A stretch of 64,000 bases of DNA from an uncultured Gammaproteobacteria bacterium (GTDB taxonomy: Bacteria > Patescibacteriota > Patescibacteriia > Magasanikbacterales > UBA922). Made by a program: the position numbers and the translations under genes. Of this stretch, positions 2,619 through 26,190 are shown one piece after another; the stretch's first letter is position 1; every line of letters begins with the position of its first letter. The DNA is taken from positions 1,095,829-1,159,828 of the forward strand of contig OZ246405.1 of NCBI GenBank assembly GCA_965231005.1, written 5' to 3'. The notes beneath the pieces were generated by a model. The model did no database searches and was not told the origin of the DNA. It was given only the letters and a program-made list of their open reading frames with translations.

Positions 2619-3170
2619 TTATACTGTTAAAATTTCTTTTTCTTTTTCTTCTCCTATCTTTTTGACTTCTTCATTATAATCCTTGACCATTTTGTCAAGC
2701 GAATCTTGAGATTTATACTTTTGATCTTCAGAAATTTCTTTTTCTTTTTCTGCCTTATCAATTTGTGATCGCACATCTTCACGAATTTTTCTAATACTAA
2801 TTCGACATTCTTCTAATTTTTTGTGCAATACTTTTATCAACTCTTGGCGTCTATCTTGTGTAAGCTCTGGCAATGGTAGTCGAATAAGCTTTCCATCATT
2901 AACAGGATTAATTCCTAAATCAGAATGACGAAGTGCTGTTTCTACATCTTGAATAAGACTCTTATCCCAAGGATCTACATTTAGCGTTTTGGCATCTTCC
3001 ACTGATATTGATGCAACTGCCTTTAGTGGCTGTTTTGCACCATACGCCTCCACAATAATATCCTCGACCAATGCAGGAGTTGCTCTTCCTGTACGCAGGC
3101 TTGCTATTTCGCTTTTTAGATGTTGAATTGACTTACTAAAGTTTTGTTTACTGTCTTCTATAATTTGCAT
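2619..3170 (-). CDS. frr: ribosome recycling factor
   Basis: 183 aa with RRF-like sequence throughout (…LVEDIIVEAYGAKQPLKAVASISVEDAKTLNVDPWDKSLI…). Confidence 0.85.
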   Translation of the reverse strand: MQIIEDSKQNFSKSIQHLKSEIASLRTGRATPALVEDIIVEAYGAKQPLKAVASISVEDAKTLNVDPWDKSLIQDVETALRHSDLGINPVNDGKLIRLPLPELTQDRRQELIKVLHKKLEECRISIRKIREDVRSQIDKAEKEKEISEDQKYKSQDSLDKMVKDYNEEVKKIGEEKEKEILTV

Positions 3171-4368: not shown

Positions 4369-5331
4369 TTAAGGAATACATAACAATATTTGTTCAACCA
4401 AAAGACGTGGATGAACATTTTTTTCAATATAACGCAGTGCTCGCATAATCTGTTTTTCCATTTCAAGCACTTGTTCACGAGTCCAATTTGTTTTAACATT
4501 CACATCATGAATTACAAGATCAGTAATCCCTTGTTGTGAAAACCAAACATCGCGGACAAGGATACGCCAAAGTTGCAACACCGAATACATTTTTGTTCGT
4601 GTTGCGACATGATCTTTTTTGTCTCCAAACAATTCTTCGGCTGTTTTTATTTTATCAAAAAAAGGCATATTTAGAAAGCCGACAAACCGGTCAACTTCTT
4701 TTTGATAAGAAAGGAATGTATCTTCTGATATTGCCCATTGCTGAGCCAGGCCTGGAAGACCTCGTGAATATGCTGCATATGTCTCTGCCTGTTCCTTTTG
4801 AATACCTTGTGCCATGAGAGAAGAGGTGATTTCTGAACGTGACACAGAAAAAAAATATATTACTTGGCATCGAGAAAGAATCGTCGAAGGCAATGCATCT
4901 TCATTTGATGTTGTAAGAAATAGTATAGTTTTTTTTGATGGTTCTTCCAGTGTTTTTAACAGTGCGTTTGCTGCATTCACATTCATCTTTTCAGCTTCTT
5001 CAATAACACCAACTTTGTATCCATTTGGAATAAATGCACTTTTTGAAAAAAAAGCAATAAATGAGCGTAATTGTTCTATAGAAATATTTTTTTTGGTTTT
5101 TCCTGTCTTTTCATCCTGTTCTTGTTTGACTACATAAAAATCTGGAACCGTGTGTAACGCGTCTACTGATGTATCAAATACTGTTCCTGCGACATTATTT
5201 ATAAGCGTCCGCTTCCCAACATGTTCTGGTCCAACCAAACAATATGCATGAGCAAGACGATCATGTTTTATAGCTTGAGAAAAAAACTGTTGAATGGCAC
5301 TATGGCCAATGACTGATGACATAATACTCAT
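4369..5331 (-). CDS. holB: DNA polymerase III subunit delta-prime (AAA+ clamp loader)
   Basis: N-terminal ...AYCLVGPEHVGKRTL... Walker A-like P-loop and clamp-loader-like architecture, 320 aa. Confidence 0.55.
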   Translation of the reverse strand: MSIMSSVIGHSAIQQFFSQAIKHDRLAHAYCLVGPEHVGKRTLINNVAGTVFDTSVDALHTVPDFYVVKQEQDEKTGKTKKNISIEQLRSFIAFFSKSAFIPNGYKVGVIEEAEKMNVNAANALLKTLEEPSKKTILFLTTSNEDALPSTILSRCQVIYFFSVSRSEITSSLMAQGIQKEQAETYAAYSRGLPGLAQQWAISEDTFLSYQKEVDRFVGFLNMPFFDKIKTAEELFGDKKDHVATRTKMYSVLQLWRILVRDVWFSQQGITDLVIHDVNVKTNWTREQVLEMEKQIMRALRYIEKNVHPRLLVEQILLCIP

Positions 5332-5364: not shown

Positions 5365-6471
5365 CTATCCAAGAAGAATAGCTGCGGTTTGTTCCCCACT
5401 TGTTTTCCAAGAAAAATGTTGTAAGCGTGCAGTACCTTTCTCGATCATGGCTAACCTTTTTGACTGATCTTCAAACACACGAAGAATCGCTTGTGCAATA
5501 TCATCAATGTCTAATGCATCAACATATTCTGCTGCACCACCACCAACTTCTTGCAAACTATTCCCCTTTGATGCAATAACTGGCGTCTCACATGCAAATG
5601 CTTCAAGAATTGGCAAACCAAAACCTTCATATAAACTTGGGAAAACAAATGCTGATGCCTCACATAACAATGGAATCACATCTTGTTGTTCAACCCAGCC
5701 AGGATGAATAATATCATCTTTATATCGATGAGATTGAATACAGTCTAAAACATCTTGATATCCATGTCCTGGCTTTCCTACAAGGACGAATTGTAAGTTG
5801 TCCCCAACTTTTGATCGCACAATTTCGAACGCTTGCAACATTCTTTTTGTATTCTTTTTTTCTTCCAACCGTCCAATAGAAAGAAGAAAAGGCTTTGTAA
5901 TATTGTATTTTTCTAAGACTTCACGTGTTTCTTGAACGTCTTTATTTGAATAAGAAATCTGATATCCATGAGGAACTATAGTAATCTGACTGTTCATATG
6001 ATTTGCACACGCTTCAAGTTCTGATTTTGTAAATTGGCTTGGAACAATGACCTTCCACAATCTTTTCACTGCGACCTTGGCAGACCAAAGAGAATACCAT
6101 CGCTCAAACCAGTTATAACTTTTTGGAAATGCCCTTGCAGCAACATCATGAACCATCATGACTGTTTTTTTCGGATGAATTAATGGGAAGACATGGGCAG
6201 GAATAAACAAAATATCTGGACGAGCAAATATCATTTCTAAACTTAGTCGAATCTGTGTCCAAAGCCGTTTTGGTGGCCAGTGAAGAACCTTTGACTCCCA
6301 ATGTTCAGGAAGATCTGCCAGTGTGCCTTGTAGCTTTTCTCGTGAATACAAAACAACATGCACGTGAGAAGGAATTGTCTGTTTTAACTCTTGAATAATA
6401 TGAAAAGCATAAGACTCAACACCGGTTTGTTGTGTTGTATTTGCACGACTTGCGTCTATACCTATGACCAT
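5365..6471 (-). CDS. glycosyltransferase family 4 (GT-B fold)
   Basis: C-terminal EGFGLPILEAFACETPVIAS motif typical of GT4 retaining glycosyltransferases; ORF extends to 6498 but MVIGIDAS start avoids overlap with ribD. Confidence 0.6.
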   Translation of the reverse strand: MVIGIDASRANTTQQTGVESYAFHIIQELKQTIPSHVHVVLYSREKLQGTLADLPEHWESKVLHWPPKRLWTQIRLSLEMIFARPDILFIPAHVFPLIHPKKTVMMVHDVAARAFPKSYNWFERWYSLWSAKVAVKRLWKVIVPSQFTKSELEACANHMNSQITIVPHGYQISYSNKDVQETREVLEKYNITKPFLLSIGRLEEKKNTKRMLQAFEIVRSKVGDNLQFVLVGKPGHGYQDVLDCIQSHRYKDDIIHPGWVEQQDVIPLLCEASAFVFPSLYEGFGLPILEAFACETPVIASKGNSLQEVGGGAAEYVDALDIDDIAQAILRVFEDQSKRLAMIEKGTARLQHFSWKTSGEQTAAILLG

Positions 6472-6475
6472 ACGA

Positions 6476-7588
6476 CTAGTATTCGTTGATAATACCACGA
6501 ACTTTTATATTGTTCCCGATCATCTCAACCTTCATCTGTTTTGTTTTTAATGACTGATCCAAATGTTCAATACCCTGTCCAGCAATTGCTCCTATTGAAT
6601 TTGTACCGCCAATAATTTTAGGAGAAATGTAAAAAAGAAATTCATCGACAACAAGTGGATCTGCAATTGTTTCATCATAAAATGAACCATGTACACCTGC
6701 TCCCCCTTCAACATACAGATGTTGAATATATTCTTTCCCTAAAAATTGAAGTAATTTTTTAATTGAAACTCTTCTATTCCCTAACACTTCTACTCTGAAT
6801 CCTTGTCTTTCAATCATTCTTCTTCGAGATGCTGATGCCTCTTCTGTGCAAATAAGGATTACATGTTTATCACGAAACACTTTTTTCTTAAGATCAAGAC
6901 GAAGATCTGAATCAATAATAACACGTGTAAGATTCTTTTTTGAAAATGAACCATGCGCAGCAAGTTCTGGATCATCTGCTAACACAGTTCCTGACCCAAC
7001 CAACACAGCATCTGCAATACTACGTTCTAGTCGTGCATCTGTTCTTGCCAGCTCGTTTGTAATCCATTTTGAATGTCCTTGTTTTGTTGCAATTTTCCCA
7101 TCAAGACTCATCCCAACCTTGAGACAAACATATGGCAAAGACGTTTGCATCCACTTAATATATGACTGATTTAATGAACGAATACGCTTGTACATTGGAT
7201 GAACAACTGAAACAGTATGAACATGAACACCAGTATTTGACAGTGCGAGAAGTCCTTTACCATTAACACGCTTGTCTGGATCGGTCATTCCAAAGACAAC
7301 ACGTTTAATACCAACAGAAGAAATCAAATCAGTACATGGTGGTGTTCGCCCATAATGCGAACATGGTTCAAGTGTTGTATATAATGTTGATCCTTGCACT
7401 GCGTGCTTCTTTTGAGCAGACTGGATGGCAACTACTTCAGCATGCTTTCCACCAACAGGACGAGTAAATCCTTCACCAATAACCTGGCCATCCTTTACTA
7501 ATACGGCACCAACAATAGGATTTGGAGATGTTGTCCCTATTCCGTTTTCTGCAATTTCAATTGCCCGTTGCATAAACCGTTGATCCAT
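6476..7588 (-). CDS. ribD: bifunctional riboflavin biosynthesis deaminase/reductase
   Basis: CMP/dCMP deaminase zinc motif HAEVVAI...TLEPCSHYGRTPPC followed by RibD C-terminal reductase domain. Confidence 0.8.
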   Translation of the reverse strand: MDQRFMQRAIEIAENGIGTTSPNPIVGAVLVKDGQVIGEGFTRPVGGKHAEVVAIQSAQKKHAVQGSTLYTTLEPCSHYGRTPPCTDLISSVGIKRVVFGMTDPDKRVNGKGLLALSNTGVHVHTVSVVHPMYKRIRSLNQSYIKWMQTSLPYVCLKVGMSLDGKIATKQGHSKWITNELARTDARLERSIADAVLVGSGTVLADDPELAAHGSFSKKNLTRVIIDSDLRLDLKKKVFRDKHVILICTEEASASRRRMIERQGFRVEVLGNRRVSIKKLLQFLGKEYIQHLYVEGGAGVHGSFYDETIADPLVVDEFLFYISPKIIGGTNSIGAIAGQGIEHLDQSLKTKQMKVEMIGNNIKVRGIINEY

Positions 7589-7596: not shown

Positions 7597-8802
7597 TTAT
7601 ACTTTTTTTAAAAGGTGCCCCATTTTATTTTTTTTTGTTTTTAGATAGTTACGATTTATATTATTTGGATTGATCTCAATAGGGACTTGTTCCACAATAT
7701 TCAAACCATATCCCTCAATCCCTGAAAGTTTTTTTGGATTGTTTGTCATAAGTCTAATATCACGTAGACCAAGATCAACTAAAATTTGGGCACCGACACC
7801 ATACTCTCTTAAATCGTCTAAAAAGCCCAAACGATTATTTGCTTCCACGGTATCAAGACCCTGTGTACGCTGTAATTCGTATGCCTTAATTTTATTAATT
7901 AAACCAATCCCACGACCTTCTTGTTTCATATATAAAATAACTCCTGAGCCTTGCTGAGCAATAGTTGACATTGCAGACGCTAATTGTGGACCACAATCAC
8001 AGTGGGCAGATCCAAATACATCACCAGTAAGACATTCCGAATGAACACGCACGAGTGTTGATTCTTGAGATATGTCACCTTTTACAAGTGCTATTTGTTC
8101 ACTGTCGTGAAGCAAATCTCTGTAAATACGAACCCCCCATTTTCCTGTTGAAGAATCAATAATTGTGTTTGCTTCTAATGAAATAAATTTTTCAGTTTTA
8201 TGTCGATATGCAATAAGATCTGCAATCGTAATAACAACAAGATTATGCTTTTGGGCAAATGGAATAATATCAGGAACACGCATCATTGAACCGTTGTCAT
8301 GCATAAGTTCACTAATAACAGCACCTTCGCGCAATCCTGCAAGACGACACAAATCTACTGAGGCTTCTGTATGCCCAGCTCGCCACAATACACCACCATG
8401 TTTTGCTCGAAGAGGAAATACATGACCAGGTCGAGAAAGATCTTGTGGCTTTGCATCTGGATGAATAGCATCTAATACTGTTTTTGCTCTATCTTGTGCA
8501 GATATACCTGTACTAATTCCCTTCACAGCCTCGATACTCACAGTAAACGGCGTTTCACGCTTTGATGTATTGTTTGATACCATTGGAGGGAGATTCAGCT
8601 CATCTGCGATTTCATTACTCAAAGACATACATACGATTCCGCCAGTATGACGAATAAAAAATGCCATCTTTTCTGGCGTTATATGCTGAGCCGGTATCAT
8701 AAGATCTCCTTCATTCTCTCTCCTTTCATCATCTAGGATGACAATCATTTCTCCACGCTGAATCGCTGCAATTGCTCGCTCAATTGTATGAAATTTGGAC
8801 AT
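7597..8802 (-). CDS. ribBA: bifunctional 3,4-dihydroxy-2-butanone-4-phosphate synthase / GTP cyclohydrolase II
   Basis: N-terminal DHBP synthase motif ...[13 protein letters not shown]... and C-terminal GTP cyclohydrolase II half; 401 aa. Confidence 0.8.
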
Positions 8803-8809
8803 ACACTAT

Positions 8810-9817
8810 TTACTTAGTCGCCATAATACTTCTCTTATAGTTATCAAGATTTTCCAATGCAACACCTGTTCCTTTTGCAACACACAGCATTGGTTCGTCT
8901 GCAATATAACAAGGAACACCTGTTGCTTGTGCAAATAACTCATCAAGATTTCGCAATTGTGATGAACCCCCTGACATGATAATCCCTTTATCCATAACAT
9001 CGGCAGATAATTCCGGCGGTGTTTCTTGCAAAACTTCTTTTATGGATTCAATAAGTCCATGCAAATCATTTTGCAATGCTTCTGTTGTGTCGTTTGATGT
9101 CACAGTAATTATTTTTGGCAATCCACTTATCATATCTCTTCCTTTTACTTCCATTTTCAAAGGATTGTCCATATACATTGCTGATCCTACTGCAATCTTT
9201 AAATTTTCTGCACTTCTCTCTCCAATAGCCAATCCATATTTTCGTCTGATGTATTCTGAAATTGAAACATCAAATTTATTTCCACCTATACGAACTGATC
9301 CTGATGATACTATTCCACCAAGAGAAATAACAGCAATCTCTGCAGTTCCACCACCAATATCAATAATCATGTGCCCGCTTGCACTTCCAATTGGAATATC
9401 TGCACCAATAGCAGCAACAATTGGTTCTTTAATAATGTATGCAGCACGCGCTCCTGCCATCATTGCCGCATCAATCACTGCACGTCGTTCTGTTGAGGTT
9501 ATTCCTGCAGGAACAGCAACCATAACCTCTGGACGGAAAAGACGAATACCACCAAGTGCTTTATTGATAAAATATCGAAGCATAGCTTCTGTTGTTCTGT
9601 AATTTGCAATCACTCCATCTTTTAACGGACGTTCAGCAACAATAGTATCTGGTGTACGACCAATCATATCTTTTGCTTCTACGCCAACAGCAAGAATCTT
9701 TTTATCATCTCGAGAGATTGCAACAACAGATGGTTCATTAATAACAATACCGCGTTTTGGTACATGAACCAACACGTTTGTTGTCCCTAGGTCAATTGCA
9801 ACTTTTTTTATAATCAT
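8810..9817 (-). CDS. mreB: rod shape-determining actin homolog MreB
   Basis: MIIKKVAIDLGTTNVLVHVPKRGIVINEPSVVAI... canonical MreB N-terminus; 335 aa. Confidence 0.85.
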   Translation of the reverse strand: MIIKKVAIDLGTTNVLVHVPKRGIVINEPSVVAISRDDKKILAVGVEAKDMIGRTPDTIVAERPLKDGVIANYRTTEAMLRYFINKALGGIRLFRPEVMVAVPAGITSTERRAVIDAAMMAGARAAYIIKEPIVAAIGADIPIGSASGHMIIDIGGGTAEIAVISLGGIVSSGSVRIGGNKFDVSISEYIRRKYGLAIGERSAENLKIAVGSAMYMDNPLKMEVKGRDMISGLPKIITVTSNDTTEALQNDLHGLIESIKEVLQETPPELSADVMDKGIIMSGGSSQLRNLDELFAQATGVPCYIADEPMLCVAKGTGVALENLDNYKRSIMATK

Positions 9818-9878: not shown

Positions 9879-11336
9879 TTATTTGAGCTTCACCTGAAAT
9901 ATCCTATCAAGAAGAAGGTCAGAATCGATATTATATACAGTATCTCCCCATTTTTCCTCCTTTTCTGCTGGTGTAGCTGATGTAATAGTTGTATCAAAAT
10001 CAAGGTCAAGCGTCAAACCATGAGCCCCAGTTCCTGCTTGTTTCTGAACAACAAATGTATACATACCCTTTTCAATACGCTTCTGAATGTCTGTAGGAAG
10101 CTTATATACAAATGTAACATCACGTTCCTGCCCTGGTTCGATTGATATAAATGAGCCAAACCAATCCTTTCCACCTTCATGCCCAATATCTACATCATCC
10201 AGTGTCGGCGTTGAATTTTTCTTGCCAATTCCGTGGACAGAAATAAGTTTTGAACCTTTTGGAACAAACACTCTTACATAAGATAAATACCGTGTTGTAC
10301 GCCAGTCAAAAGATCCATTGTGCGTATAATGCATTTGAGCACTGACAATGTATTCTCCATTGTCATTGCGAACCATTGTATATTGCAAATCCCGTTCCAT
10401 TGCATGGTCAGTTTTTAATGCTGCAAGATTCGCATCAACCCAGAGGAGGTAATCATCTTCGGTTTCAATGATTCTTCCTGCCCAGCCTTTTTCATCTATA
10501 AGTTTTTGTAATTCTTTGTTTTCACTTGAAACTAAAATATGTTTTTCGTTTGCGAGTGAAACTAATTCACTGAGAAATGTATCATAGTCAAGAAATGCTT
10601 TTGTTTTTATTTTTTGAAGAAGTGTTCTCATAAACGGTTCTAAAATTTCCTTTCTTCTTTCAAATGGAATACCTTTTTCTCTATACCCATATTCTACTTC
10701 GTACTCTAATTTTTCTGTGATATCTTTTTCAGTAAACGTAATATCAGCAACAGTCACTGGACCAATATGTTTGAGCATACGTTCAATCACTGTTGGTGTA
10801 ATTGCAATAACCGCATCAATGTCTTGTGCTGCAATACCCTCTTCACCTTTGTACAATTCCAATGCCTTTGCTGCAGATGCTACAAAATCTGGAGACCAAT
10901 TTGCATCACGGAAATACCAACGGTCAACACCAAGATGGTCTGTAATAGGCTGTGGTGGCACTGGCTTCCAATCCTTAGGAGTATTGCGGTCAATTGTTTC
11001 TGTACCTTCTACTCTTATAAGATTCATACTTCCCTTATCCATCTGAACAACAGCATAGGATCCAATAAAACCACCACTCGGTCGAAGCTCAGTATTATTT
11101 TGGAATAGTAAAAGATATGTACGAGACTCATCAAAACCAAGAAATTGTGGAACGAGTTTTAAAAAATCACCTGTTGCATCATTTGTATACTGTGTAATCA
11201 AATTTGATGACAAAATACTTTTTACCGAATGATTACTAATATATTGATATATCAATATTGCACCAACAATTGCTGCAAGCAAAAAAATACTAAGAACAAT
11301 TGGCCAGAGTTTTCTTTTTTTTCTTCTCAAAAACAT
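9879..11336 (-). CDS. DUF4012-like membrane-anchored protein
   Basis: N-terminal TM helix; internal ...NTELRPSGGFIGSYAVVQMD... stretch as I recall it from DUF4012 proteins common in small-genome bacteria; sits in glycosyltransferase locus. Confidence 0.45.
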   Translation of the reverse strand: MFLRRKKRKLWPIVLSIFLLAAIVGAILIYQYISNHSVKSILSSNLITQYTNDATGDFLKLVPQFLGFDESRTYLLLFQNNTELRPSGGFIGSYAVVQMDKGSMNLIRVEGTETIDRNTPKDWKPVPPQPITDHLGVDRWYFRDANWSPDFVASAAKALELYKGEEGIAAQDIDAVIAITPTVIERMLKHIGPVTVADITFTEKDITEKLEYEVEYGYREKGIPFERRKEILEPFMRTLLQKIKTKAFLDYDTFLSELVSLANEKHILVSSENKELQKLIDEKGWAGRIIETEDDYLLWVDANLAALKTDHAMERDLQYTMVRNDNGEYIVSAQMHYTHNGSFDWRTTRYLSYVRVFVPKGSKLISVHGIGKKNSTPTLDDVDIGHEGGKDWFGSFISIEPGQERDVTFVYKLPTDIQKRIEKGMYTFVVQKQAGTGAHGLTLDLDFDTTITSATPAEKEEKWGDTVYNIDSDLLLDRIFQVKLK

Positions 11337-11350
11337 AACAAATGTGTTAG

Positions 11351-12856
11351 TTATAAATTGCGTTTCTTTTGAGAAACATTGAATCCTAAATACTTACCAA
11401 ACATAAGATGCGTGACTGCATCGATAGCTGGAATCGCACTCATGAAAATAAGAGTAATTGGGAGAAGCGCCCACTGAAGGAGCATAATAATGTACCTGTG
11501 CGGTGGATGTGAATTTGGTCGTTTGGGAAGGAGTGGGAAACTAAAAAATGCAGAAAGCAACAAACCAAGCATAGATATGAGCATTAAATTCTGCAGCATA
11601 TGTGGTGTGTTAAAAAATAGTGCGGTTTGTTTGATCGCTCCTTCTGCCACCAACATTGGTAACCGACCAAGTACAGTAATCAAAAGAGCAACCACACACC
11701 ATGACCATTTCCCTTCCCATTCAACAAAAACCCATTTTATTTTTTTCCACAATGGAATTGCATTTCCTTTTTTCTTAAATTCCCACAATAAATATGGAAC
11801 ATGTTCAACACCCCATGCCCAACGACGCTGTTGTTTGTACAAATTTTTCATACTTTGTTTCCAAGAATCATCACGGACGGTATCCATTGATACAGGAATA
11901 TACATTGGTGTAACCTCGTACTCTCCATTGTATCGTAAAAGACATTGGTAAAAAATTCGTGAATCTTCGCTAACAATTCTTTTTTCATGAAACCCAGCAT
12001 CAACAATTGCACGAAAACTCATCGAATGAGATGAAAACGTTACAAGAGCATCTTGCCTTGCAAGTGACGTAAACATCCAAAATGTTGTTCCAAATGCCAT
12101 AATCCGAAGTACAGCTGGAGACTCCCACATATTATTGTTGTAGAGCGCAATTGGTTGGAATGAACTTCGTGTTGGATTTGGATGTTTGCAATACAAATAT
12201 GTTAAATAAGAAAAATAGTGCTCATGACATACCGTATCAATATCAAACATCGTACAAATGACGTTATCGTAGTTCCACCCTTTGTTATCAATATATGTTT
12301 TTATTTGTCTTTCAGCATAGTGTAAGTTAGATCCTTTTCCTGGAATTTCTCCTGAAAGACCAACTGGATGACATGTTCCCACTATGTCTGCAAACGAATT
12401 AGGAAACGCCTGTTTTGTTTTTTGCAAAATATCTAGATAATGTTCTTTTGTTTTTTCTTCTCCTGCAATAACAATCATTAACTTACTTCTGTCATATGTT
12501 GCTCGTGCAATACTTTCTATCGCTGTTTTAACCACTGCCCACTCTTCATTATATAATGTAAGAAATACAACATGATGCTTATCTTCCCATGAATCTACCT
12601 CATGAAATAATTTATCTTTCCAATCGATTTTTTTTGCTGTTGCATAACGCCGCCATGCAACATTCAAATAAAAAGAAAAATTAACTACTTTCAATACCCA
12701 ATAAATATCAAAAATAATAATAAAATAAATCATCCAAAGTGGTCGAATGAATGATAATACTATAGACAAAATCAGGGTTAACCAAATGGATAGCCCTGGA
12801 AGAATTTCATATAGTCTGTAACGCTGATAATCAGTAAGCATTAGGCTTGGATACAA
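11351..12856 (-). CDS. membrane-embedded processive family-2 glycosyltransferase (cellulose/chitin-synthase-like)
   Basis: Multiple TM segments, cytoplasmic GT-A region and QQRRWAWG, i.e. the Q(Q/R)xRW motif of processive beta-glycosyltransferases. Confidence 0.6.
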   Translation of the reverse strand: MYPSLMLTDYQRYRLYEILPGLSIWLTLILSIVLSFIRPLWMIYFIIIFDIYWVLKVVNFSFYLNVAWRRYATAKKIDWKDKLFHEVDSWEDKHHVVFLTLYNEEWAVVKTAIESIARATYDRSKLMIVIAGEEKTKEHYLDILQKTKQAFPNSFADIVGTCHPVGLSGEIPGKGSNLHYAERQIKTYIDNKGWNYDNVICTMFDIDTVCHEHYFSYLTYLYCKHPNPTRSSFQPIALYNNNMWESPAVLRIMAFGTTFWMFTSLARQDALVTFSSHSMSFRAIVDAGFHEKRIVSEDSRIFYQCLLRYNGEYEVTPMYIPVSMDTVRDDSWKQSMKNLYKQQRRWAWGVEHVPYLLWEFKKKGNAIPLWKKIKWVFVEWEGKWSWCVVALLITVLGRLPMLVAEGAIKQTALFFNTPHMLQNLMLISMLGLLLSAFFSFPLLPKRPNSHPPHRYIIMLLQWALLPITLIFMSAIPAIDAVTHLMFGKYLGFNVSQKKRNL

Positions 12857-12916
12857 AAAATATTATGCGCCTAATATAGCAGAAAAATTGGGAAATGTCC
12901 ACTTTATAAAAAGAAA

Positions 12917-13726
12917 TTATTTCTTCTTAAATGCGTACACAGGAAACCATGGTGCAGAAGGATCATTCCCATAATGAATCGCTTCTATTTGGAAAAATTC
13001 TTGTGCTTTCTTTTCAAAATCATCCTTTTGCATAACAGACAAAGATGGTTCATCAGTTTCAATAGAAAATGCTTTCATAATGAAATCATAGTCCTTTTGC
13101 TGAATCAAACCTTTTTCTTTTGCCTTATCAATTTCAATTGTTGCATCTCTTAAATCACACATGTTTTCCCCATTACGTTTACAACAATACAAGAACGGCA
13201 ACGTTGTTTCATACAAACTATACTTCCCTTCCCACTCTTTATAATGTCTTTCAAGTGCTTTTTCAAGATCAGTGTCTTCTGTTGGAAACAGCGCTTCTCT
13301 TCCAATAAATAACCCATCGTCTTTTAAATGGTTAACAATGTTTTGAAAAAATTGATCATACTGACTTGTGTGTAAAACACCCGGAACCCAATCACCAAAA
13401 ATAAGATCAAACTGCTTTCCTAAATTCATGGTTAACCAATTGTCTTCATAAAATGTTTCTTCTCCTTTGTGTTCCATTGGTTGTTTGGATAACACATGAA
13501 AAAATTCTTCAGAAAAATCTACAATATGAACATTCATGCCATTTTTATGAAGCATGCTACGAAATTCAACTGTTGAACCCAAAATAAGAACATCAAGTTT
13601 GCCTTCTTTTTTCTTTTCCAGTGCGTACTTTTCAAACCATGCAACTTCACTAGGCCATGGTCGTGCAGGTGCTGGAAGCTCTTTCCAATAATCTGCTTTT
13701 GTTTCTTGCCAATTTGCTTCTGTCAT
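12917..13726 (-). CDS. uncharacterised paralog family member 1 (Rossmann / class I SAM-methyltransferase-like)
   Basis: Shares with 14839-15663, 15665-16507 and 16518-17336 the motifs ARP(x)nW near N-term, hhILGSTxEFR (degenerate MTase motif I position) and DhhhGD (post-II like). Confidence 0.4.
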   Translation of the reverse strand: MTEANWQETKADYWKELPAPARPWPSEVAWFEKYALEKKKEGKLDVLILGSTVEFRSMLHKNGMNVHIVDFSEEFFHVLSKQPMEHKGEETFYEDNWLTMNLGKQFDLIFGDWVPGVLHTSQYDQFFQNIVNHLKDDGLFIGREALFPTEDTDLEKALERHYKEWEGKYSLYETTLPFLYCCKRNGENMCDLRDATIEIDKAKEKGLIQQKDYDFIMKAFSIETDEPSLSVMQKDDFEKKAQEFFQIEAIHYGNDPSAPWFPVYAFKKK

Positions 13727-13730
13727 ATAT

Positions 13731-14837
13731 TTATTCTTTACTACTTAATTTTTTTTCAAGCGATTCTTGTGCTGCACCAGTAATCCACCGAACAACTGAA
13801 GACACTCTCATATTTGCAAAATCATGTGACTCTTGTTTTTTTTCTCGGTCAACACGAGGATTGTTGTATTTCACAACACGAACACGTTCATGTCCAGCAG
13901 CTTGTAAAACCGGTGCAAATTCATCTGCTGCCTTTGGTGAAACATACTCATCTGGATGACCCCCCATAAATGTATCCGGAGTATAAAAGCTTGATTCAAG
14001 ATTTTTGTATGAAGTCCAATCACCAGCATACATTCTTTCTGAGTTTGCTTTCATTTGTTTCATATTTTCAACAGGATCAAGACATTCATGAACACCATTG
14101 TCTTTGATATAACCCAAGTACCCTTTGAATTTTTCGCCTGGCATAACTCCTTCACTATCAAGAGATCCATCTTCTTGGATTCTTCCAACTGCACCAGAGA
14201 GTGATACAACACGAGAAATCTTATCTACTAGTTCTGGATGTGATTTTGATAGATGTTCAAGTGCAGAATAAATATTGTGAACACCCATGGAATGACCAAC
14301 AAGATGAACCTTAGAAAATGCTTCTTGTAATCCAATAATGGCTGTTTCAACTTCATGCCCCCATGCTTCAAAAGAAAATGGTTCACCTAAATGATCTTGC
14401 CCATTTCCCTTTGCCCACTCTTGTTTTTTTGGACAATCAACAAGTCCTACAGCTGCACCACCTTCCATTTTGGTTCCATTGTGTCTAGAACCAAACACTG
14501 TAAATCCTTCTTTTACCAAGGCAGGTGCATACCGTGAATTGAGCCAACGAACTCCTCCACCAGGAACTCCTGGATTTAAAATAACAATCTCTCCATTACT
14601 TTTATCTGCATCTGGTAAATATAATTCACCTTCTATTTCTCTTCCGTCTGCTTCCACTTTTGTCCACACAACGTCTGCTTGGATTGGATCTCCGTTTTCA
14701 TCAACGGTTCTTCCTGATTCAAACGAAGCATCAATATTTACATGATCTCCAAGTTCTTTTAATCTTGCAGTAAGCTCTGGATTTAGTTCAAAAGAGGAAT
14801 CTTTCATCTCTCCTTTTGGTTTTATTTTTTCTGGCAT
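13731..14837 (-). CDS. alpha/beta-hydrolase (lipase/esterase-like)
   Basis: VHLVGHSMGVH nucleophile elbow (G-H-S-M-G); 368 aa; inserted between paralogs 1 and 2. Confidence 0.55.
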   Translation of the reverse strand: MPEKIKPKGEMKDSSFELNPELTARLKELGDHVNIDASFESGRTVDENGDPIQADVVWTKVEADGREIEGELYLPDADKSNGEIVILNPGVPGGGVRWLNSRYAPALVKEGFTVFGSRHNGTKMEGGAAVGLVDCPKKQEWAKGNGQDHLGEPFSFEAWGHEVETAIIGLQEAFSKVHLVGHSMGVHNIYSALEHLSKSHPELVDKISRVVSLSGAVGRIQEDGSLDSEGVMPGEKFKGYLGYIKDNGVHECLDPVENMKQMKANSERMYAGDWTSYKNLESSFYTPDTFMGGHPDEYVSPKAADEFAPVLQAAGHERVRVVKYNNPRVDREKKQESHDFANMRVSSVVRWITGAAQESLEKKLSSKE

Positions 14838-14838
14838 A

Positions 14839-15663
14839 TTATTTCTTTACAAATTTATATACAAAAGAACAATCAGCAAATAATGTATCATCTTGCAGCT
14901 GATCTGCAATAGTAAAGTATTTTTCAATAGCAACACGATCTTCTTCCCAATAACTTCCTCCACCAAGATTCCATGTTTTTCCTTTTGGCAACATATCTAA
15001 AAACCGTTCATAATATTCTTTCATGTTTGGTCGATCTATGTGTTTCTTCAATAGTTCAATAGTATCATCTGTTTTGGATTCACGATTTCTATGTGACAAA
15101 AAATTTAATTCAGAAAAGAAGTCACTGGTAGATTCATTTGAAGGCTCAATCTTTTCGTACTTTGAAATAAGCTCTTCTGGTGTATAAATCTTAGTTTCTG
15201 GAAACATGGTAATAATACGTGTAATGAGTGCGCCTGTTGCTTTGAGTAATCCAGCAATAGCTCCAAAAAGCTCATCTTGTTTATCAAAAGGAATGTTTGC
15301 TCGGATGTGATCACCAAATACTGCATCAAATTCTCCTTTTGGTAATTGTGGATCTAACCAGTTCCCCTGTACCCATGTTTCTCGTTCATGCGATTCTTTC
15401 ATAAGCGAAGACATTGCCTTTGTCATTTCTGTATTTATATCAAGAACAGTAACATGAATATTCGGATAGGTTGCCAACATATCGCGAACTTCTGGAGTTG
15501 AACCAAAAATAACAACCTTTGGCTCAGCAACACCAGCAATAGCTTCATCAAGAAATTGCTTATATTGTGTTACATTTTTTTTAGATGGATGAGGACCTTC
15601 TGTAAATTTTCCCCATGAATCTGCAAACTTTTTCCATGGGTCTGCGTAAATTTCTTTGCTCAT
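14839..15663 (-). CDS. uncharacterised paralog family member 2 (MTase-like)
   Basis: VVIFGSTPEVRDML and DAVFGD motifs aligned with paralogs 1, 3, 4. Confidence 0.4.
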   Translation of the reverse strand: MSKEIYADPWKKFADSWGKFTEGPHPSKKNVTQYKQFLDEAIAGVAEPKVVIFGSTPEVRDMLATYPNIHVTVLDINTEMTKAMSSLMKESHERETWVQGNWLDPQLPKGEFDAVFGDHIRANIPFDKQDELFGAIAGLLKATGALITRIITMFPETKIYTPEELISKYEKIEPSNESTSDFFSELNFLSHRNRESKTDDTIELLKKHIDRPNMKEYYERFLDMLPKGKTWNLGGGSYWEEDRVAIEKYFTIADQLQDDTLFADCSFVYKFVKK

Positions 15664-15664
15664 A

Positions 15665-16507
15665 CTATTTTTTCTTTAGCACGTATGTAGGATAACATTC
15701 AGAATAAAATGGTACATATTCTTGATCAATCCATTTTTCTTCAATGATAAAAAATTGTTCCAACCTTTTTTCAACAAATTCCTCTGGTGGATAAAAGAAT
15801 TCAAACTGAGTTTTATCTTTTCCAAGCAAACGAAACGGTTCAATTTGTTTTTCAGTTATTAACCCATCGTCATATAATTGTTCGACCAACGTAGCACAAT
15901 TTTTTATTGCAAGAACATGTGACTCATTCCGAGGAGTGCTTGCATAAACCATAGGACTAAACACTTTATAAAAAGAATGTTTTTCAAGATCTTCTTTTCT
16001 TTTTGTAACTTCTTCTCTAAGCGTTAGATATTCATATTTTTTTGGAATACCCCAGCACGTATCAATAAAAAGACTATCTCCATGCATGTGTTTTGCAATA
16101 TTTTGCAAATATACTTCGTTGTCCGTGTGAGTCACAATATTAAATGCAGCATCTGTAATAATGAGATCAAACTCTTTACCTAAATCCATTGTACGCCAAT
16201 CATCTTGAATAAATGTTTCCTTCTCAGCATAGTTATCTTTATGCTTCATTGCGCTTGAAAGAATATCATAATTGTCCTTACTAAAATCAACAATTGTCGG
16301 ATGAATTCCAAGATCAATACATACATCTCTAAATTCAGACGTTGATCCTAGAATAAGTAAGGAAAATGCATCGCCTTTTTCTGCGAATGCTTTTTCTATA
16401 TGTCCTTTAACAAATGCCAACCGAGCGGCTGTTGGTCGTGCAGGCGGTTCCCAATACTTTGCCCAACGCTCTGCAAAATCGATTAACCAATTTTTGTCTT
16501 TAGTCAT
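15665..16507 (-). CDS. uncharacterised paralog family member 3 (MTase-like)
   Basis: LLILGSTSEFRDVC, DLIITD motifs; 1-nt spacing to paralog 2. Confidence 0.4.
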   Translation of the reverse strand: MTKDKNWLIDFAERWAKYWEPPARPTAARLAFVKGHIEKAFAEKGDAFSLLILGSTSEFRDVCIDLGIHPTIVDFSKDNYDILSSAMKHKDNYAEKETFIQDDWRTMDLGKEFDLIITDAAFNIVTHTDNEVYLQNIAKHMHGDSLFIDTCWGIPKKYEYLTLREEVTKRKEDLEKHSFYKVFSPMVYASTPRNESHVLAIKNCATLVEQLYDDGLITEKQIEPFRLLGKDKTQFEFFYPPEEFVEKRLEQFFIIEEKWIDQEYVPFYSECYPTYVLKKK

Positions 16508-16517
16508 ATAATAGGAA

Positions 16518-17336
16518 TTATTTTTTTAAAGTAAGTTTTACAATAGGAATATGCTTTGCATACCAATCTTGTCCAATAATGTATGAATCAAGTTTGAAAA
16601 AATCTGAATAACTTTTGGAAAATATTTCTCTTAAGGGAATATTCATTTTGAAATCTCCAAGTGCATTCCAACGTTTTTCAAACTCCTCATATTCGTATTG
16701 AGTGAGTATACCGCTCTTATATGAGTCATGCAATCTTTCCTTACTTGTAGGACAATGCATGGTATCTTCTTCAAAATCATAATCTGACAACAATACTTCA
16801 TACCATACAGATGAAAACGGACTTTTGTCTGAGCGTTCTTCTCTGTACAATTTAAAAATTTCCTCGTGTGACATTTGATTATTATTCTCGCGAAGTGGTG
16901 TTTTCAAAAAAAGAATTGCATTTGAATTACAATGCCCTGCTATTTGAGAAAACATTTGTTTGTGATCTTTTACAGGAGTAACAGTCGTTGCAAGATCACC
17001 TAAAAACACATCAAATGTTTTATCAAAACCACTCATGTCGAGCCAATCTGAAACAATCAAATTATCTTCTGTATCTTTATGTGGTAATGATTCTCGCAGT
17101 CCTAAAAAATTTTCTTTACTATATTCAATACACGCATAGTTGATACCCAACTGCTGACATAAATCTCGATATTCAATTGTAGAACCAAGAATAGCAACTG
17201 CAAGATCACTATGTTCAGATTGCAATGAGAGAAGCTCTTTTTTTAGTAGGTCAATCTCATGAGAAGAAGGACGTGCAGGTGGCAAAAACAAATCCCATTT
17301 TTTTGCTACATCTGTTGTCCATTGGTTTGTTTCCAT
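16518..17336 (-). CDS. uncharacterised paralog family member 4 (MTase-like; ORF extends to 17414, METNQW start more likely)
   Basis: VAILGSTIEYRDLC, DVFLGD motifs; longer N-terminal ORF extension overlaps tsaB-like gene. Confidence 0.4.
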   Translation of the reverse strand: METNQWTTDVAKKWDLFLPPARPSSHEIDLLKKELLSLQSEHSDLAVAILGSTIEYRDLCQQLGINYACIEYSKENFLGLRESLPHKDTEDNLIVSDWLDMSGFDKTFDVFLGDLATTVTPVKDHKQMFSQIAGHCNSNAILFLKTPLRENNNQMSHEEIFKLYREERSDKSPFSSVWYEVLLSDYDFEEDTMHCPTSKERLHDSYKSGILTQYEYEEFEKRWNALGDFKMNIPLREIFSKSYSDFFKLDSYIIGQDWYAKHIPIVKLTLKK

Positions 17337-17349
17337 ATCACTATTTTCA

Positions 17350-17724
17350 TCAACCAATATTTGGCTCACCACTGTATGTAGCTGAAATGTATTTTCCTTC
17401 TTGCTGTGATTCAAACTTTGAAATAAGTTCTTGAGTATTCTTTAGATCATCTGATGAAATTGAGATGACGGGAATCTTATGTATATATACAAATCCATTC
17501 GCGACTGTTGTTGCAATCCGTGTACTTGTGAATCCACCTTCACCAACAACAACGGCAATACCTTGTACATCCTTTTTCTCAATCTTTTGCTCTGTCAAAA
17601 ATTCATCTATATAAAAAAGCAGATCACGATTTTTCGCATCTACTTGTTTTTCAAACACACTCTCTTTGTCGAAGAGAGTAAGCCGGACAATATCTTTTTT
17701 AGATGTATCAATTCCCAAAAACAT
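17350..17724 (-). CDS. tsaB: short TsaB-like protein (tRNA t6A37 system, inactive Kae1 paralog)
   Basis: MFLGIDTS...GIAVVVGEGGFTSTRIATTVANGF matches TsaB/YeaZ N-terminal half; only 124 aa. Confidence 0.45.
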   Translation of the reverse strand: MFLGIDTSKKDIVRLTLFDKESVFEKQVDAKNRDLLFYIDEFLTEQKIEKKDVQGIAVVVGEGGFTSTRIATTVANGFVYIHKIPVISISSDDLKNTQELISKFESQQEGKYISATYSGEPNIG

Positions 17725-17726: not shown

Positions 17727-18350
17727 TTAATTTGAAAATTTGTCAACCGCTTTTATATGCTTACCTTCAAACAGTGAAAATAAAAATTTATCAAGCACAT
17801 GTCGTCGGTCAAGAAATTCTTCTGGAGACATAATTGTATACCGGACTTCTGCATTAAAATCCTTTTCATGTTTTCCAATGATCTTTTGAATAGATCGATC
17901 TTTTAAATTTCCAACTAACAAAATATCACTCTTTGCATCGGTCTCACCTGTAAACCGACCTGTAAGGAGAAGGAGGTGAATGTCTCCTCCTTTCTTCTGT
18001 AAATCATCAATCAATTGCTGTTCACCAAGAACTTGCGCTTTCAGAAGAAGCTTGTGCATTTCTGGATAGAGCAATGCTTTTGTATTTAACACATAATATT
18101 TTCTAAGTGTTGACCCCATTGTATTGTCTTCCATCTTTTCTACAGACGTCTTTTTCTTGTCGACTGCTTCTTTTTCTACTTCAAGAATCAAATCACAATC
18201 AAGAAGAATTTTTAATTCTCTGCGAATCGCATTTATTTGTGTATCCAAAAGACGCTGCAGCTCTCGAACATAAAATGCTCTTTCTGGATCTTGATAAAAA
18301 ACCTTTAACAATTTTAGTCTTGTTTTTGAACCAAATAAGTGTTCAAGCAT
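17727..18350 (-). CDS. putative winged-helix DNA-binding protein
   Basis: N-terminal LFGSKTRLKLLKVF...YVRELQRLLDTQINAIRRELKIL resembles HTH/wHTH regulators; rest unassigned. Confidence 0.3.
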   Translation of the reverse strand: MLEHLFGSKTRLKLLKVFYQDPERAFYVRELQRLLDTQINAIRRELKILLDCDLILEVEKEAVDKKKTSVEKMEDNTMGSTLRKYYVLNTKALLYPEMHKLLLKAQVLGEQQLIDDLQKKGGDIHLLLLTGRFTGETDAKSDILLVGNLKDRSIQKIIGKHEKDFNAEVRYTIMSPEEFLDRRHVLDKFLFSLFEGKHIKAVDKFSN

Positions 18351-18484: not shown

Positions 18485-20728
18485 ATGAGCCATCTTGAGT
18501 TACAAGAATTCTTCGTCGAAGGAGATAGCCAAAAAAAATCCCATGTCCTCCTTCATATAACTGAACCAAGCACACCTAAGGAATTAGAGCGTGGGTATTT
18601 TTTTGCGCTTGCAGAAATTAATAATGGAACATTTGAGCATATTGAGCATCTTCAGAACATGATTGATGATCTTGAATCTGGATTTTATGCAACAGAACAA
18701 GCAACCGGTATTGAAGCGTTTGAATCAACACTGGAATATATAAATAGACGTGGGCACACAATTTTGCAAGGAAAAAATTTGCAAGTTAATTGTCTCATCG
18801 GAATTATCAAAGATAACACGCTTGCATTTTCACACCACGGAGACATGCATGCACTTCTTTTCTACAGAGGTGCAAAAGATACGCAAACAATGGATATTTT
18901 AAAAGATGCAAAAAACGATGCAGGATCTGGACAATTATTTTCATCAATTTTACAAGGAAAATTAAACACTGGTGATTTCTTCTTCATTGGCTCTCCGTAT
19001 GTAGAAGAATTTTTTTCATACGATAGACTCCAAAAAATTATAACAAGTCGTTCTGTAAAGCAAAGTACAGCACATATAGAAAAAGTATTGTCAGATGTGC
19101 ATGCAGAATATTCTTTTGGCGGGATAGTATTCCGTGTTTTAGCAAAACAACAAACACAACTAAAAAAGACAGCTGGAAAAGATGCATCTGCAGCATCGTT
19201 AAACAAGCTCATAGATTCACGCAAAAAAACAGCTGAGACACTTTCTCCACCACTCTTAAAACATCTTACACAGAAAATAAAAGGTTCACGAAACAAGAAA
19301 ACAGAAAGAATACGAAGTAAAAAAAGTGCACCACAGCATAAACCTGAAAGACAGCAAAAAGGAAAAGTTGAAACAAATTACCGGTATAGAGATGACAACA
19401 TGCCTGGACAGTCTTTTCTCAATACACTCCTTATTGGACTTGGTAGGGCTATTGTTGCTGGAGGTGTTGGTGCATACAATCTCATTAAAAAAATATTCAT
19501 GACACTTGCAAAGGGACTTGTTGGATTGTTTATTATTATTACAAATAAAAACAATAGTAGAAATGATGTAATTCAAACAATGCGAAAGACATGGAAAAAG
19601 AAAAAGGGACAATTTGAAGATCTTCCTATGATGAGCAAGATGCTCTTTGTCGCAACAATCATTGCAGGAATCATATTCATCTTAAGTATAGGGGTATTAA
19701 AACTAAAAGAAAACTATCAAGCAAAAACTCAGGCAGACAAAAATCTTGTCCAGGCAGTTATTGATAAAAAGGATGCTGCCGAAGCAAGTCTAATATACAA
19801 TGATCAAGAAAAAGCATTTACTCTTTTGAACGAAGCAAAAGAATTAGTTCAAACACTTCCAACAAATAAGAAAGCAAAACGCGAACAAAAAGAAACACTT
19901 GAAAAACAAATAGAAGATCTCATGATCGCAATAAGAAAACTTGAAATGATCTCACCTCAAGTACTTGTAAATATTACTGAACAATATCCAAATGCAAAAA
20001 CAACTTACATAGCACAAATTGATAATACACTGGTTGCATACGGTCCAAATGATAATAAAACATATAGTGTTGATGCTACGTCTGGTGCGCTTCAGGCAGC
20101 AGACCATGTTGGCGCGATAAAACTTGGAAACGCTACCACACCAAAAGAACAAGATACCATTGTATTCTTAAATAAAGAAAATAGTGTTGCAACATACAAT
20201 AAAAGTACAAAAACAGTCAGTGCAAAAGATATTAGTTTTCCTCTAGAAAATGCTTCAATTGTTGATGGATTTGTCTATAATGTTCGGCTCTATACTGTTG
20301 ATACTACAAACAACCAAATCTACAAGCACAACAAAACACAAACTGGATATGACAGAGGAACAACATGGTTGAAACAAGATGCGGACTTGAGTGATGCAAC
20401 TTCTCTTGCAATTGATGGAGACATTTTTGTCCTCAAGAAAAATGGAGAAATATATAAATTTGCAAAAGGAAACCAAGAATCATTCTCTGTTGCTGGCCTA
20501 GATCCAAAACTTGATTCACCAACAGAGCTATTCGCATACAACGATATTGATTACTTATATATTCTTGAACCAACGCATAAGCGGGTTGTTGTATTAGATA
20601 AAGAAGGAAAATTAGTTAAACAATATTCCTCAGATGCATGGAAAAATCCAACAGGTCTTGTCGTGAAAGAAGCCGGAAATACAATTTATGTCCTTGATGA
20701 CAATAAAATTTATTCATTTTCTCTTTAA
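18485..20728 (+). CDS. large membrane protein with N-terminal PP2C-like region and C-terminal beta-propeller-like repeats
   Basis: Segment CLIGIIKDNTLAFSHHGDMHALLF resembles PP2C ...vGDSRayL region; hydrophobic TM segments around residues 310-410; repetitive NxxY/ W-containing C-terminal blades. Confidence 0.35.
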   Translation: MSHLELQEFFVEGDSQKKSHVLLHITEPSTPKELERGYFFALAEINNGTFEHIEHLQNMIDDLESGFYATEQATGIEAFESTLEYINRRGHTILQGKNLQVNCLIGIIKDNTLAFSHHGDMHALLFYRGAKDTQTMDILKDAKNDAGSGQLFSSILQGKLNTGDFFFIGSPYVEEFFSYDRLQKIITSRSVKQSTAHIEKVLSDVHAEYSFGGIVFRVLAKQQTQLKKTAGKDASAASLNKLIDSRKKTAETLSPPLLKHLTQKIKGSRNKKTERIRSKKSAPQHKPERQQKGKVETNYRYRDDNMPGQSFLNTLLIGLGRAIVAGGVGAYNLIKKIFMTLAKGLVGLFIIITNKNNSRNDVIQTMRKTWKKKKGQFEDLPMMSKMLFVATIIAGIIFILSIGVLKLKENYQAKTQADKNLVQAVIDKKDAAEASLIYNDQEKAFTLLNEAKELVQTLPTNKKAKREQKETLEKQIEDLMIAIRKLEMISPQVLVNITEQYPNAKTTYIAQIDNTLVAYGPNDNKTYSVDATSGALQAADHVGAIKLGNATTPKEQDTIVFLNKENSVATYNKSTKTVSAKDISFPLENASIVDGFVYNVRLYTVDTTNNQIYKHNKTQTGYDRGTTWLKQDADLSDATSLAIDGDIFVLKKNGEIYKFAKGNQESFSVAGLDPKLDSPTELFAYNDIDYLYILEPTHKRVVVLDKEGKLVKQYSSDAWKNPTGLVVKEAGNTIYVLDDNKIYSFSL

Positions 20729-23465: not shown

Positions 23466-23650
23466 AATATTTCAAACAAAAAATCTGTGGATACCACAGA
23501 CATACGAGCTTCTCACGACCTTGAGGTAGTCTTGCGACTACGAGATATGCCTCGGCAGGATATTAAGTCTTTCAACCCCTGCTGTCTTTGGTATATGTTT
23601 GTGCGTACAGTGTAGCAGAGGTGCTTTCTTTTGTCAAGTGTCAACCATAA
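23466..23650 (-). promoter_or_regulatory. rplJ 5' leader / promoter region (possible L10 autoregulatory leader)
   Basis: About 185-nt untranslated region upstream of rplJ with GC-richer, hairpin-forming segments, unusually long for this genome; no covariance check possible. Confidence 0.25.
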
Positions 23651-26165: not shown

Positions 26166-26190
26166 AGAAGGAACAGATAGAACTCTGAGC

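Follow-up and report, generated by a model that had tools for sequence, protein, structure and literature searches.

The genomes of the Candidate Phyla Radiation (CPR, Patescibacteria) measure about 1 Mb and are regarded as metabolically minimal. The 64,000-nucleotide stretch of contig OZ246405.1 analysed here (the window) carries on its minus strand four methyltransferase-like paralogs in tandem, P1 to P4, with the gene of a serine alpha/beta-hydrolase lodged among them. What do these enzymes act on? In the original prediction they were linked to a neighbouring polymer synthase and to the decoration of a surface glycan. The answer that we favour, with moderate confidence, is another one, namely that the five genes (12917-17336) form a cytoplasmic cassette for the methylation or other modification of small molecules. 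It would comprise four anciently duplicated class I methyltransferase-like enzymes of a distinct, uncharacterised clade and a serine hydrolase predicted to be catalytically intact. The fold, the signature, the paralogy and its age, the partner genes and the mobility of the cassette were observed in this work.

The four paralogs and their glycine loop

The layout of the locus was established from open reading frames and from profile searches against Pfam and the PDB. In the order of transcription, P4 (16518-17336, 272 amino acids) is followed by P3 (15665-16507, 280 amino acids), P2 (14839-15663, 274 amino acids), the hydrolase (13731-14837, 368 amino acids) and P1 (12917-13726, 269 amino acids), with gaps of 1-10 bp within this block. 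The four reading frames lay where they had been predicted, with one correction. The longest frame of P4 begins at a TTG at 17414 and overlaps a short tsaB-like gene (17350-17724). In homologues, and in the ENA gene call too, the protein begins at METNQW, that is at ATG 17336, which is most likely the start. The four proteins are true paralogs, since every pair was recovered by BLASTP (E 1e-9 to 1e-29, identity 23-32%); none showed similarity to the hydrolase in the same comparison. P4 and P1 matched the hidden Markov model (HMM) of the family at E 1.6e-95 and 2.1e-99, respectively. P2 is the most canonical copy among the four, exceeding the Pfam cut-offs of both Methyltransf_25 (29.7 bits, cut-off 27) and Methyltransf_11 (24.2 bits, cut-off 21.2). 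Neither in P1-P4 nor in the hydrolase was an N-terminal hydrophobic segment evident when the sequences were judged by eye.

A neighbour-joining tree was used to date the duplications. P4 grouped with genes of loci L001 (7764-8573) and L010 (11904-12722), P2 with genes of L001 (10838-11689) and L013 (2140-2988), and P1 with genes of L001 (11693-12502), L010 (9989-10795) and L005 (10001-10810). P3 has a 46% identical ortholog in Ca. Magasanikbacteria GW2011_GWA2_56_11. Because every window copy paired with orthologs from elsewhere and not with the paralogs of its own genome, the duplications are older than the species compared. Copy number has varied since then.

All motifs listed in the original prediction (an ARP...W region, hhILGSTxE(F/Y)R and DhhhGD) were found, with variants in P2 and P3. 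The N-terminal motif reads W..A..W......P(A)RP, P2 carrying GPHP for PARP; motif I reads hh(I/V)(L/F)GSTxE(F/Y/V)R, and the motif at strand beta-4 is FDxxxGD, with T for G in P3. The glycine loop had been called degenerate. The canonical motif I, (E/D)xGxGxG, is indeed missing: the loop is L-G-S-T-x-E-x-R in 4/4 paralogs and GxGxG occurs in none. It is not a decayed loop, however, but a strictly conserved alternative, as seen from 130 diverse family members. Residues G54, T56, R60 and W104 are invariant among them, and W7, W15, P22, P25, L53, E58, D74 and D114 are conserved in at least 90%. The window copies retain these signature positions except for P2 (G22, H24, F53) and P4 (E74).

Member P0122 (LGCTFGYR) helped to place the motif. 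Its Pfam Methyltransf_25 match begins with the L of LGCTFG, aligned to profile position 4, and if this alignment is taken as gapless, G-x-T-x-E would fall on the positions of GxGxG. Further along the chain, all four copies have an acid after beta-2 for ribose binding (D74, E in P4), D/N103-W104 after beta-3 and F113-D114 at beta-4. These positions fit the model strands 71-74, 98-101 and 113-119, and the predicted adenosine- and ribose-binding positions after beta-2, beta-3 and beta-4 are canonical.

The fold was examined with an AlphaFold (AF2) model of P3, computed from a 17-sequence alignment (predicted local distance difference test score, pLDDT, 94; predicted TM-score, pTM, 0.91). It displayed a seven-stranded Rossmann-type domain with the strand and helix order typical for class I methyltransferases. 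A Foldseek search against the PDB returned class I methyltransferases or proteins of methyltransferase fold for 50/50 matches listed, each with probability 1.0, at E values down to 8e-11; TM-scores of the top matches were about 0.5-0.6. The top match, 3iv6, had been deposited as a putative alcohol dehydrogenase. The methyltransferase-fold reading survives because both the model and all these matches are of class I methyltransferase type; a non-Rossmann fold, which would have spoken against the original prediction, was not obtained. Structural neighbours included CcbJ (4hh4), the phosphoethanolamine methyltransferase PfPMT (3uj6), RebM/AtmM, MtfA (3g2m), CysG, CypM (7wzg) and cyclopropane and mycolic-acid synthases. 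The nearest of them in the model comparison, CcbJ, PfPMT, MtfA, RebM/AtmM and CypM, are small-molecule, natural-product or peptide methyltransferases. The model also has an N-terminal lid helix and, between beta-5 and beta-6, an inserted helical cap, both of which would liken the family to small-molecule methyltransferases. A sequence profile search of the PDB yielded ToxA (8rdl, 1.3e-6), MM_2633 (3dtn) and other small methyltransferases. The printed alignments start past motif I, and the Pfam alignments of the window paralogs, too, begin beyond it.

Binding of S-adenosylmethionine (SAM) by the family is thus plausible on the model. The altered loop also admits a different use of the fold, in a non-methylating SAM reaction or with a ligand other than SAM, the hydrolase or its counterpart in other genomes then processing a four-carbon amino-acid product such as homoserine lactone or a gamma-substituted aminobutyrate. 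Precedents are azetidine-2-carboxylate (AZE) synthases, aminocarboxypropyl and aminopropyl transferases and SAM lyase-like chemistry. G-x-T-x-E-x-R replaces GxGxG in 130/130 members, and AzeJ/VioH are class I methyltransferase-fold enzymes with a non-canonical GxxxG motif, related to ToxA-type methyltransferases and with homologues in Patescibacteria (PMC11794875). ToxA is also the best PDB sequence match of our family, weak Spermine_synth matches were obtained (for P1 beside weak ones to Methyltransf_25 and Methyltransf_12), and both types of partner enzyme described below would suit methionine-derived four-carbon chemistry. The signature motifs of AZE synthases are FY, PFNxxGN and RxxYYxxC (PMC11794875). 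A pattern search found neither PFNxxGN nor RxxYYxxC in P1-P4, and identity with these enzymes was rejected; the loop, GxTxE.R here and GxxxG in AzeJ/VioH, differs as well. Moreover, the best matches across the family are ordinary methyltransferase domains, with E values reaching 1e-13 to 1e-15, and arrays of at least 12 diverged copies better suit a diversity of acceptors than a single SAM-splitting reaction. We consider a non-methylating role quite unlikely and retain a small-molecule methyltransferase as the preferred reading of the paralogs.

Spread of the family and its partner enzymes

An exhaustive HMM search over 1.84 billion representatives defined a family of 1,705 members at E<=1e-3, of which 329 remained at E<=1e-30. 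No dedicated Pfam or NCBIfam model was found when the window proteins and 130 members were scanned. The 130 members matched generic models alone (Methyltransf_25/11/31/12, best E 1e-13 to 1e-15), 102 of them Methyltransf_25 at E<=0.01, and the few members annotated at NCBI are labelled 'class I SAM-dependent methyltransferase'. Literature searches on DUF4012, on CPR methyltransferase arrays and on SAM-dependent methyltransferase clusters of Patescibacteria yielded no description of the family. Members occurred in Ca. Magasanikbacteria and Kerfeldbacteria (CPR), in Micrarchaeota (DPANN), in a Planctomycetota metagenome-assembled genome (MAG), in two MAGs labelled Gammaproteobacteria and in Vibrio nigripulchritudo. 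By these assignments the clade would be one of small-genome CPR bacteria and DPANN archaea, sporadic elsewhere.

Comparison across relatives revealed the variation in copy number that the original prediction had proposed to look for: it ranged from 1 to at least 12. The genome of Ca. Magasanikbacteria GW2011_GWA2_56_11 (L001/L009), with which the window is syntenic, has 8 copies, and loci L018-L021 have at least 12, with 28-68% pairwise identity. On the 238-kb contig JGI 3300009105 Ga0117905_1000026 (L018/L019, 7100-16828), at least 12 members in a row come after a Cys_Met_Meta_PP gene, a lower bound since the array extends past the retrieved locus. Copies may also be joined in one polypeptide: P0015 (1,704 amino acids) holds six domain copies, and P0016 (540 amino acids) and P0023 (574 amino acids) hold two each. 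P0095 (550 amino acids) is a fusion of a helix-turn-helix (HTH) domain, a PF06821 Ser_hydrolase domain and the family domain, and P0072 and P0111 have an extra C-terminal region of about 370 amino acids without Pfam match. Tandem arrays and fusions are thus habitual for the family. No members were found in a scan of viral contigs or in plasmids by tblastn, and an origin from mobile elements or phages was dropped.

Alternatively, the paralogs might methylate macromolecules (protein, rRNA or tRNA) or serve in defence or conflict. The array follows a tsaB-like gene near ribosomal-protein genes in the window and in two relatives, PADLOC mad2 models matched the methyltransferase core weakly, and the Vibrio member adjoins a TIR-domain protein. 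These mad2 matches, however, were confined to the generic methyltransferase core (E 1e-6 to 1e-7) and were missing for P4 and for the Vibrio member, so that a defence system was rejected as the main explanation. The viral contigs and plasmids searched had no members, no nucleic-acid-binding domain is present, and the cap, the lid and the structural neighbours are for the most part of the small-molecule methyltransferase type. To our knowledge, tandem sets of 4-12 diverged copies are not usual for housekeeping RNA methyltransferases. We regard this explanation as highly improbable.

More information came from the genes that accompany the family. We compared 19 distinct contexts (the window, L001, L005, L010-L016, L018, L022-L025 and L027-L030). 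A serine hydrolase was a neighbour in 7 of them: in the window, L010, L011, L012 and L013 it was the window hydrolase or its homologue (30-39% identity), and in L014 and L016 a PF06821 protein of 190 amino acids. Another 7 contexts (L001/L009, L005, L018-21, L022, L027, L028 and L030) had a divergent Cys_Met_Meta_PP enzyme, dependent on pyridoxal phosphate (PLP). Hydrolase and PLP enzyme were found together in 0/19 contexts (hypergeometric P 0.016, uncorrected for phylogeny and with several contigs truncated), which suggests that they are alternative suppliers of one step.

A third kind of neighbour, present in 5 contexts (L001/L009, L005, L011, L012 and L029), was formed by rifampin-phosphotransferase-like phosphoenolpyruvate (PEP)-utilizer proteins, some with a separate PPDK_N ATP-grasp protein. 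They are 350-515 amino acids long and end in a swivel-His domain (L001 15936-17483, L005 15240-20810, L011 8231-10803, L012 13357-15758 and L029 66-5659). For L001 15936-17483, the one searched against the PDB, the upstream part matched the substrate-binding region of rifampin phosphotransferase (5fbs/5hv1, 1e-15). These proteins look like split small-molecule phosphotransferases, with up to three repeats beside the arrays. Other neighbours of small-molecule-enzyme type were an NAD(P)HX-dehydratase-like kinase and an HD protein.

The alpha/beta-hydrolase with a GHSMG elbow that had been predicted between the paralogs was confirmed between P2 and P1. Its triad Ser183, Asp296 (DEY) and His338 (ESHD) and its elbow G181-H182-S183-x-G185 were invariant in 6 homologues. 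Because of the invariant triad we predict an active serine hydrolase. Pfam matches were weak, under the cut-offs and limited to the elbow region. A homologue search returned a single relative, and the model, made from two sequences, was of low confidence (pLDDT 63); searched with Foldseek, it matched alpha/beta-hydrolases throughout, among them generic esterases, thioesterases and S9 peptidases. The matches named were the C-C hydrolase MhpC, S-formylglutathione hydrolase/esterase D, YjfP, acylaminoacyl peptidases and acetyl-xylan esterases, a set that singles out no particular esterase family. Its homologues lie beside members of the family in 4 further genomes, 2 more have a different serine hydrolase in that place, and one fusion is known; the hydrolase is thus a genuine partner of the array.

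In Vibrio nigripulchritudo ATCC 27043 (L016, 4967-7875), a 497-amino-acid TIR_2-domain protein stands directly upstream of a single member and its PF06821 hydrolase, and in the Planctomycetota MAG (L014) the same pair of member and 190-amino-acid hydrolase lies beside a trypsin-like peptidase. The hydrolases of a Gammaproteobacteria-labelled MAG (L013, 319-1314) and of a Magasanikiibacteriota genome (L010, 10879-11898) are 69% identical; across supposed phyla, this suggests that the contig was mis-binned or that the cassette was recently transferred between lineages.

Adjacency to glycosyltransferase genes

Does the cassette belong to a polysaccharide locus? Its surroundings have a GC content of 34-38%, and nearly all genes lie on the minus strand. 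The original prediction was right that a glycosyltransferase family 2 (GT2)-like gene and a DUF4012 gene are present, but these lie downstream of the array and not upstream. The GT2-like gene (11351-12856, minus strand) encodes a multi-pass membrane protein with QQRRW. It matched Glyco_trans_2_3 below the cut-off (E 4.9e-4; 20.4 bits, cut-off 27), its L001 ortholog has a precomputed PF13632 match, and no match was found among PDB sequences. The DUF4012 protein (9879-11336, minus strand; Pfam E 3.8e-31) has an N-terminal membrane anchor. DUF4012 proteins have been reported to be enriched in CPR and Gram-positive bacteria (PMC6744442).

Beyond this pair follow, in the direction of transcription, MreB (8810-9817), RibBA (7597-8802), RibD (6476-7588), a GT4 protein (5365-6498), DNA polymerase III delta' (4369-5331), a BNR-repeat protein (3194-4291) and RRF (2619-3170). 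The only GT4 gene, which had been counted as part of the locus, lies outside the range given for it, past MreB, RibBA and RibD. Because these three unrelated housekeeping genes separate DUF4012 from GT4, which is itself followed by delta', BNR and RRF, there is no contiguous polysaccharide locus; Pfam and profile scans of the region also gave no sugar-nucleotide, flippase or polymerase genes.

Decoration of a surface glycan, made by the GT2 protein and handled by the DUF4012 protein, through methylation, acylation or de-esterification by the paralogs and the hydrolase nevertheless deserves to be weighed; the diversity of the paralogs would then provide combinatorial decoration. The genes are co-directional and tightly packed, with 60 bp between P1 and the GT2 gene, and Ca. 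Magasanikbacteria GW2011_GWA2_56_11 shares this neighbourhood. Sugar O-methyltransferases of AtmM/RebM type were among the structural neighbours of P3, acetyl-xylan esterases among those of the hydrolase, and DUF4012 has been linked in the literature to an exopolysaccharide (EPS) cluster in Bifidobacterium.

Across the 19 contexts, however, the association did not hold. GT2 and DUF4012 homologues flanked the array in the window and in the syntenic L001/L009 alone, L028 lying at the same site on a contig that ends earlier; the 16 other contexts were without them, and co-localisation with glycosyltransferase or polymer-export genes was not conserved in relatives. Even in L001/L009, three unrelated genes part the array from the GT2 gene. 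L027 has GT4, delta' and BNR, then a cassette of the PLP enzyme and 4 copies, and then RRF; in the window BNR and RRF are adjacent and free of a cassette. Since the cassette of L027 lies between genes that adjoin each other in the window, its chromosomal position differs among related genomes. What recurs beside the family are PLP enzymes, hydrolases and phosphotransferases and not sugar-pathway genes, and the remaining genes of the supposed locus are MreB, RibBA and RibD. Finally, the GT2 proteins of the window and L001 are 73% identical as compared with 46% for P3 and its ortholog. Such a difference is in keeping with an accessory cassette that evolves fast next to a conserved envelope module of housekeeping type.

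The paralogs are thus dispersed in relatives and not associated with glycan genes, which is what the original prediction had named as evidence against itself, and its link to a polymer synthase falls with the 16 contexts and the relocated cassette of L027. We regard glycan decoration as very unlikely. The best reading of the adjacency is inherited synteny in one Magasanikbacteria-like CPR lineage and not functional coupling, and we judge the GT2-like and DUF4012 genes to be an adjacent module outside the cassette. An easy mis-annotation is thereby corrected: proximity to these two genes is synteny and no proof of glycan modification.

Between P1 and the GT2 gene, a candidate sigma-70-type promoter was noticed on the minus strand (12873-12901, TGGACA-17-TATATT with an upstream TG; 10/12 consensus positions). 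In a promoter and terminator scan, promoter-like sites of the region were no commoner than in shuffled sequence, so that the evidence for this one is weak; if real, it would provide GT2-DUF4012 with a separate transcription start.

Upstream of P4 lie the tsaB-like gene mentioned above and the gene of an ArsR-like HTH protein (17727-18350). The tsaB-like protein has 124 amino acids, and its match is restricted to the N-terminal part of the TsaD/TsaB fold. The short form recurs in relatives at 128 amino acids and may be a minimal TsaB; full-length TsaD is encoded at 44575-45585 of the window. Further upstream, a protein of 747 amino acids without Pfam match (18485-20728) has kept its position in L001/L009 (38% identity), and L028 has a gene for 729 amino acids there. 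An L10 leader was recognised with Rfam at 23469-23609 (minus strand, 65.6 bits).

Right after the sole tRNA gene of the window (tRNA-Glu, 26091-26165), GC content rises from about 36% to about 58%. The block of high GC (26091-32000) encodes a MerR-HTH/ResIII helicase (26310-28382), a 509-amino-acid protein without Pfam match (28580-30109) and a large serine recombinase (30114-31562, minus strand). The block has the appearance of a foreign element integrated at the tRNA gene, or possibly of an assembly chimera. From 32000 to 44500, GC content is 46-50%, above the 36% of the host. Very large proteins are encoded in this part, with RCC1 repeats (37135-40428, 1,097 amino acids) and with Dictyostelium-type CTDC repeats (43138-44463), as well as several reading frames without Pfam match, including 34706-36976 and 40613-42223. 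The proteins may serve at the surface or in host interaction, and this part may belong with the preceding block to a single acquired region.

A probable small-molecule cassette among known systems

In the mechanism that we infer for the cassette, from the use of SAM and small-molecule substrates to the order of steps, each paralog would bind SAM and methylate its own low-molecular-weight acceptor or, where an acceptor is shared, its own position on it. The partner enzyme would act on the same substrates, as an esterase- or thioesterase-type hydrolase in the window and as a PLP-dependent lyase of C-S or C-gamma type in relatives. It would either unmask a nucleophile (thiol, carboxylate or hydroxyl) for methylation or process the methylated product, and expansion of the array would widen the substrate range.

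Several points weigh against this assignment. The family has no characterised member, and its SAM binding is a prediction from the model. No member has kept the second and third glycines of motif I, and their replacement might point to another ligand pose or to a reaction without methyl transfer. P4 matched no Pfam methyltransferase model at E<=0.1, and P1 and P3 stayed under the Pfam cut-offs. The substrate class was derived from moderate TM-scores (0.5-0.6) and from gene neighbourhood, and the structural neighbours include sugar O-methyltransferases of RebM/AtmM type. The 19 contexts are few, some on contigs that end early, and they are phylogenetically non-independent. Tight packing on one strand with GT2-DUF4012 (gaps 1-61 bp) makes co-transcription possible.

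A more specific proposal can be put forward, tentatively and as rather unlikely: that the G-x-T-x-E-x-R proteins are a new SAM-utilising clade working in a two-step pathway of release and then methylation. The first step would come from the hydrolase or from the divergent Cys/Met-type PLP lyase, the two being mutually exclusive. The pathway would serve to scavenge, detoxify or diversify small molecules of the host or the environment, alongside the rifampin-phosphotransferase-like kinases. Whatever the chemistry, a lineage with a small genome maintains 4 to at least 12 genes of a single uncharacterised enzyme family. Such an investment suggests that the chemistry is important and covers diverse substrates; it may be linked to an episymbiotic lifestyle. 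Because of its invariant motif, its high-confidence model, its partner enzymes and a Rosetta-stone fusion, the family is an unusually tractable target for de-orphanisation.

Pairs of a methyltransferase and an alpha/beta-hydrolase that make and remove methyl esters are known from biotin synthesis (BioC/BioH) and from protein phosphatase 2A (LCMT-1/PME-1). The present system resembles them in that a protein of class I methyltransferase fold is genetically coupled, and in P0095 fused, to a Ser-Asp-His hydrolase. Unlike them, it has several paralogs per hydrolase, and in other genomes a PLP enzyme replaces the hydrolase. The motif LGAGxDTR, which we take to be that of LCMT, recalls LGSTPELR of our family; no Pfam LCMT match was found in the 130 members, and this is resemblance alone.

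In methionine biosynthesis, MetX is a homoserine acyltransferase of alpha/beta-hydrolase fold, MetW is methyltransferase-like and MetY is a PLP sulfhydrylase of Cys/Met type. The same three folds recur around our family (alpha/beta-hydrolase, methyltransferase-like and Cys_Met_Meta_PP). Whereas MetX and MetY act together, the hydrolase and the PLP enzyme never co-occurred here (0/19 contexts), and 4-12 copies would be unusual for a core biosynthetic step of the MetX-MetW-MetY type. Membership in BioC, BioH, LCMT (PF04072), MetW (PF07021) or MetX was rejected, as no model matched the window proteins at E<=0.1 or the 130 members at E<=0.01.

With generic class I small-molecule methyltransferases, the family shares the seven-stranded fold, the N-terminal lid helix, the cap between beta-5 and beta-6, the canonical acid after beta-2 and the motifs at beta-3 and beta-4. 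It differs from them in the invariant G-x-T-x-E-x-R in place of GxGxG, in its own N-terminal W..W..P.RP together with the invariant W104, and in its habitual occurrence in tandem arrays and multi-copy fusions. All in all, the family is a sharply defined and unstudied clade of the methyltransferase fold, with an unusual array and fusion behaviour in minimal genomes.

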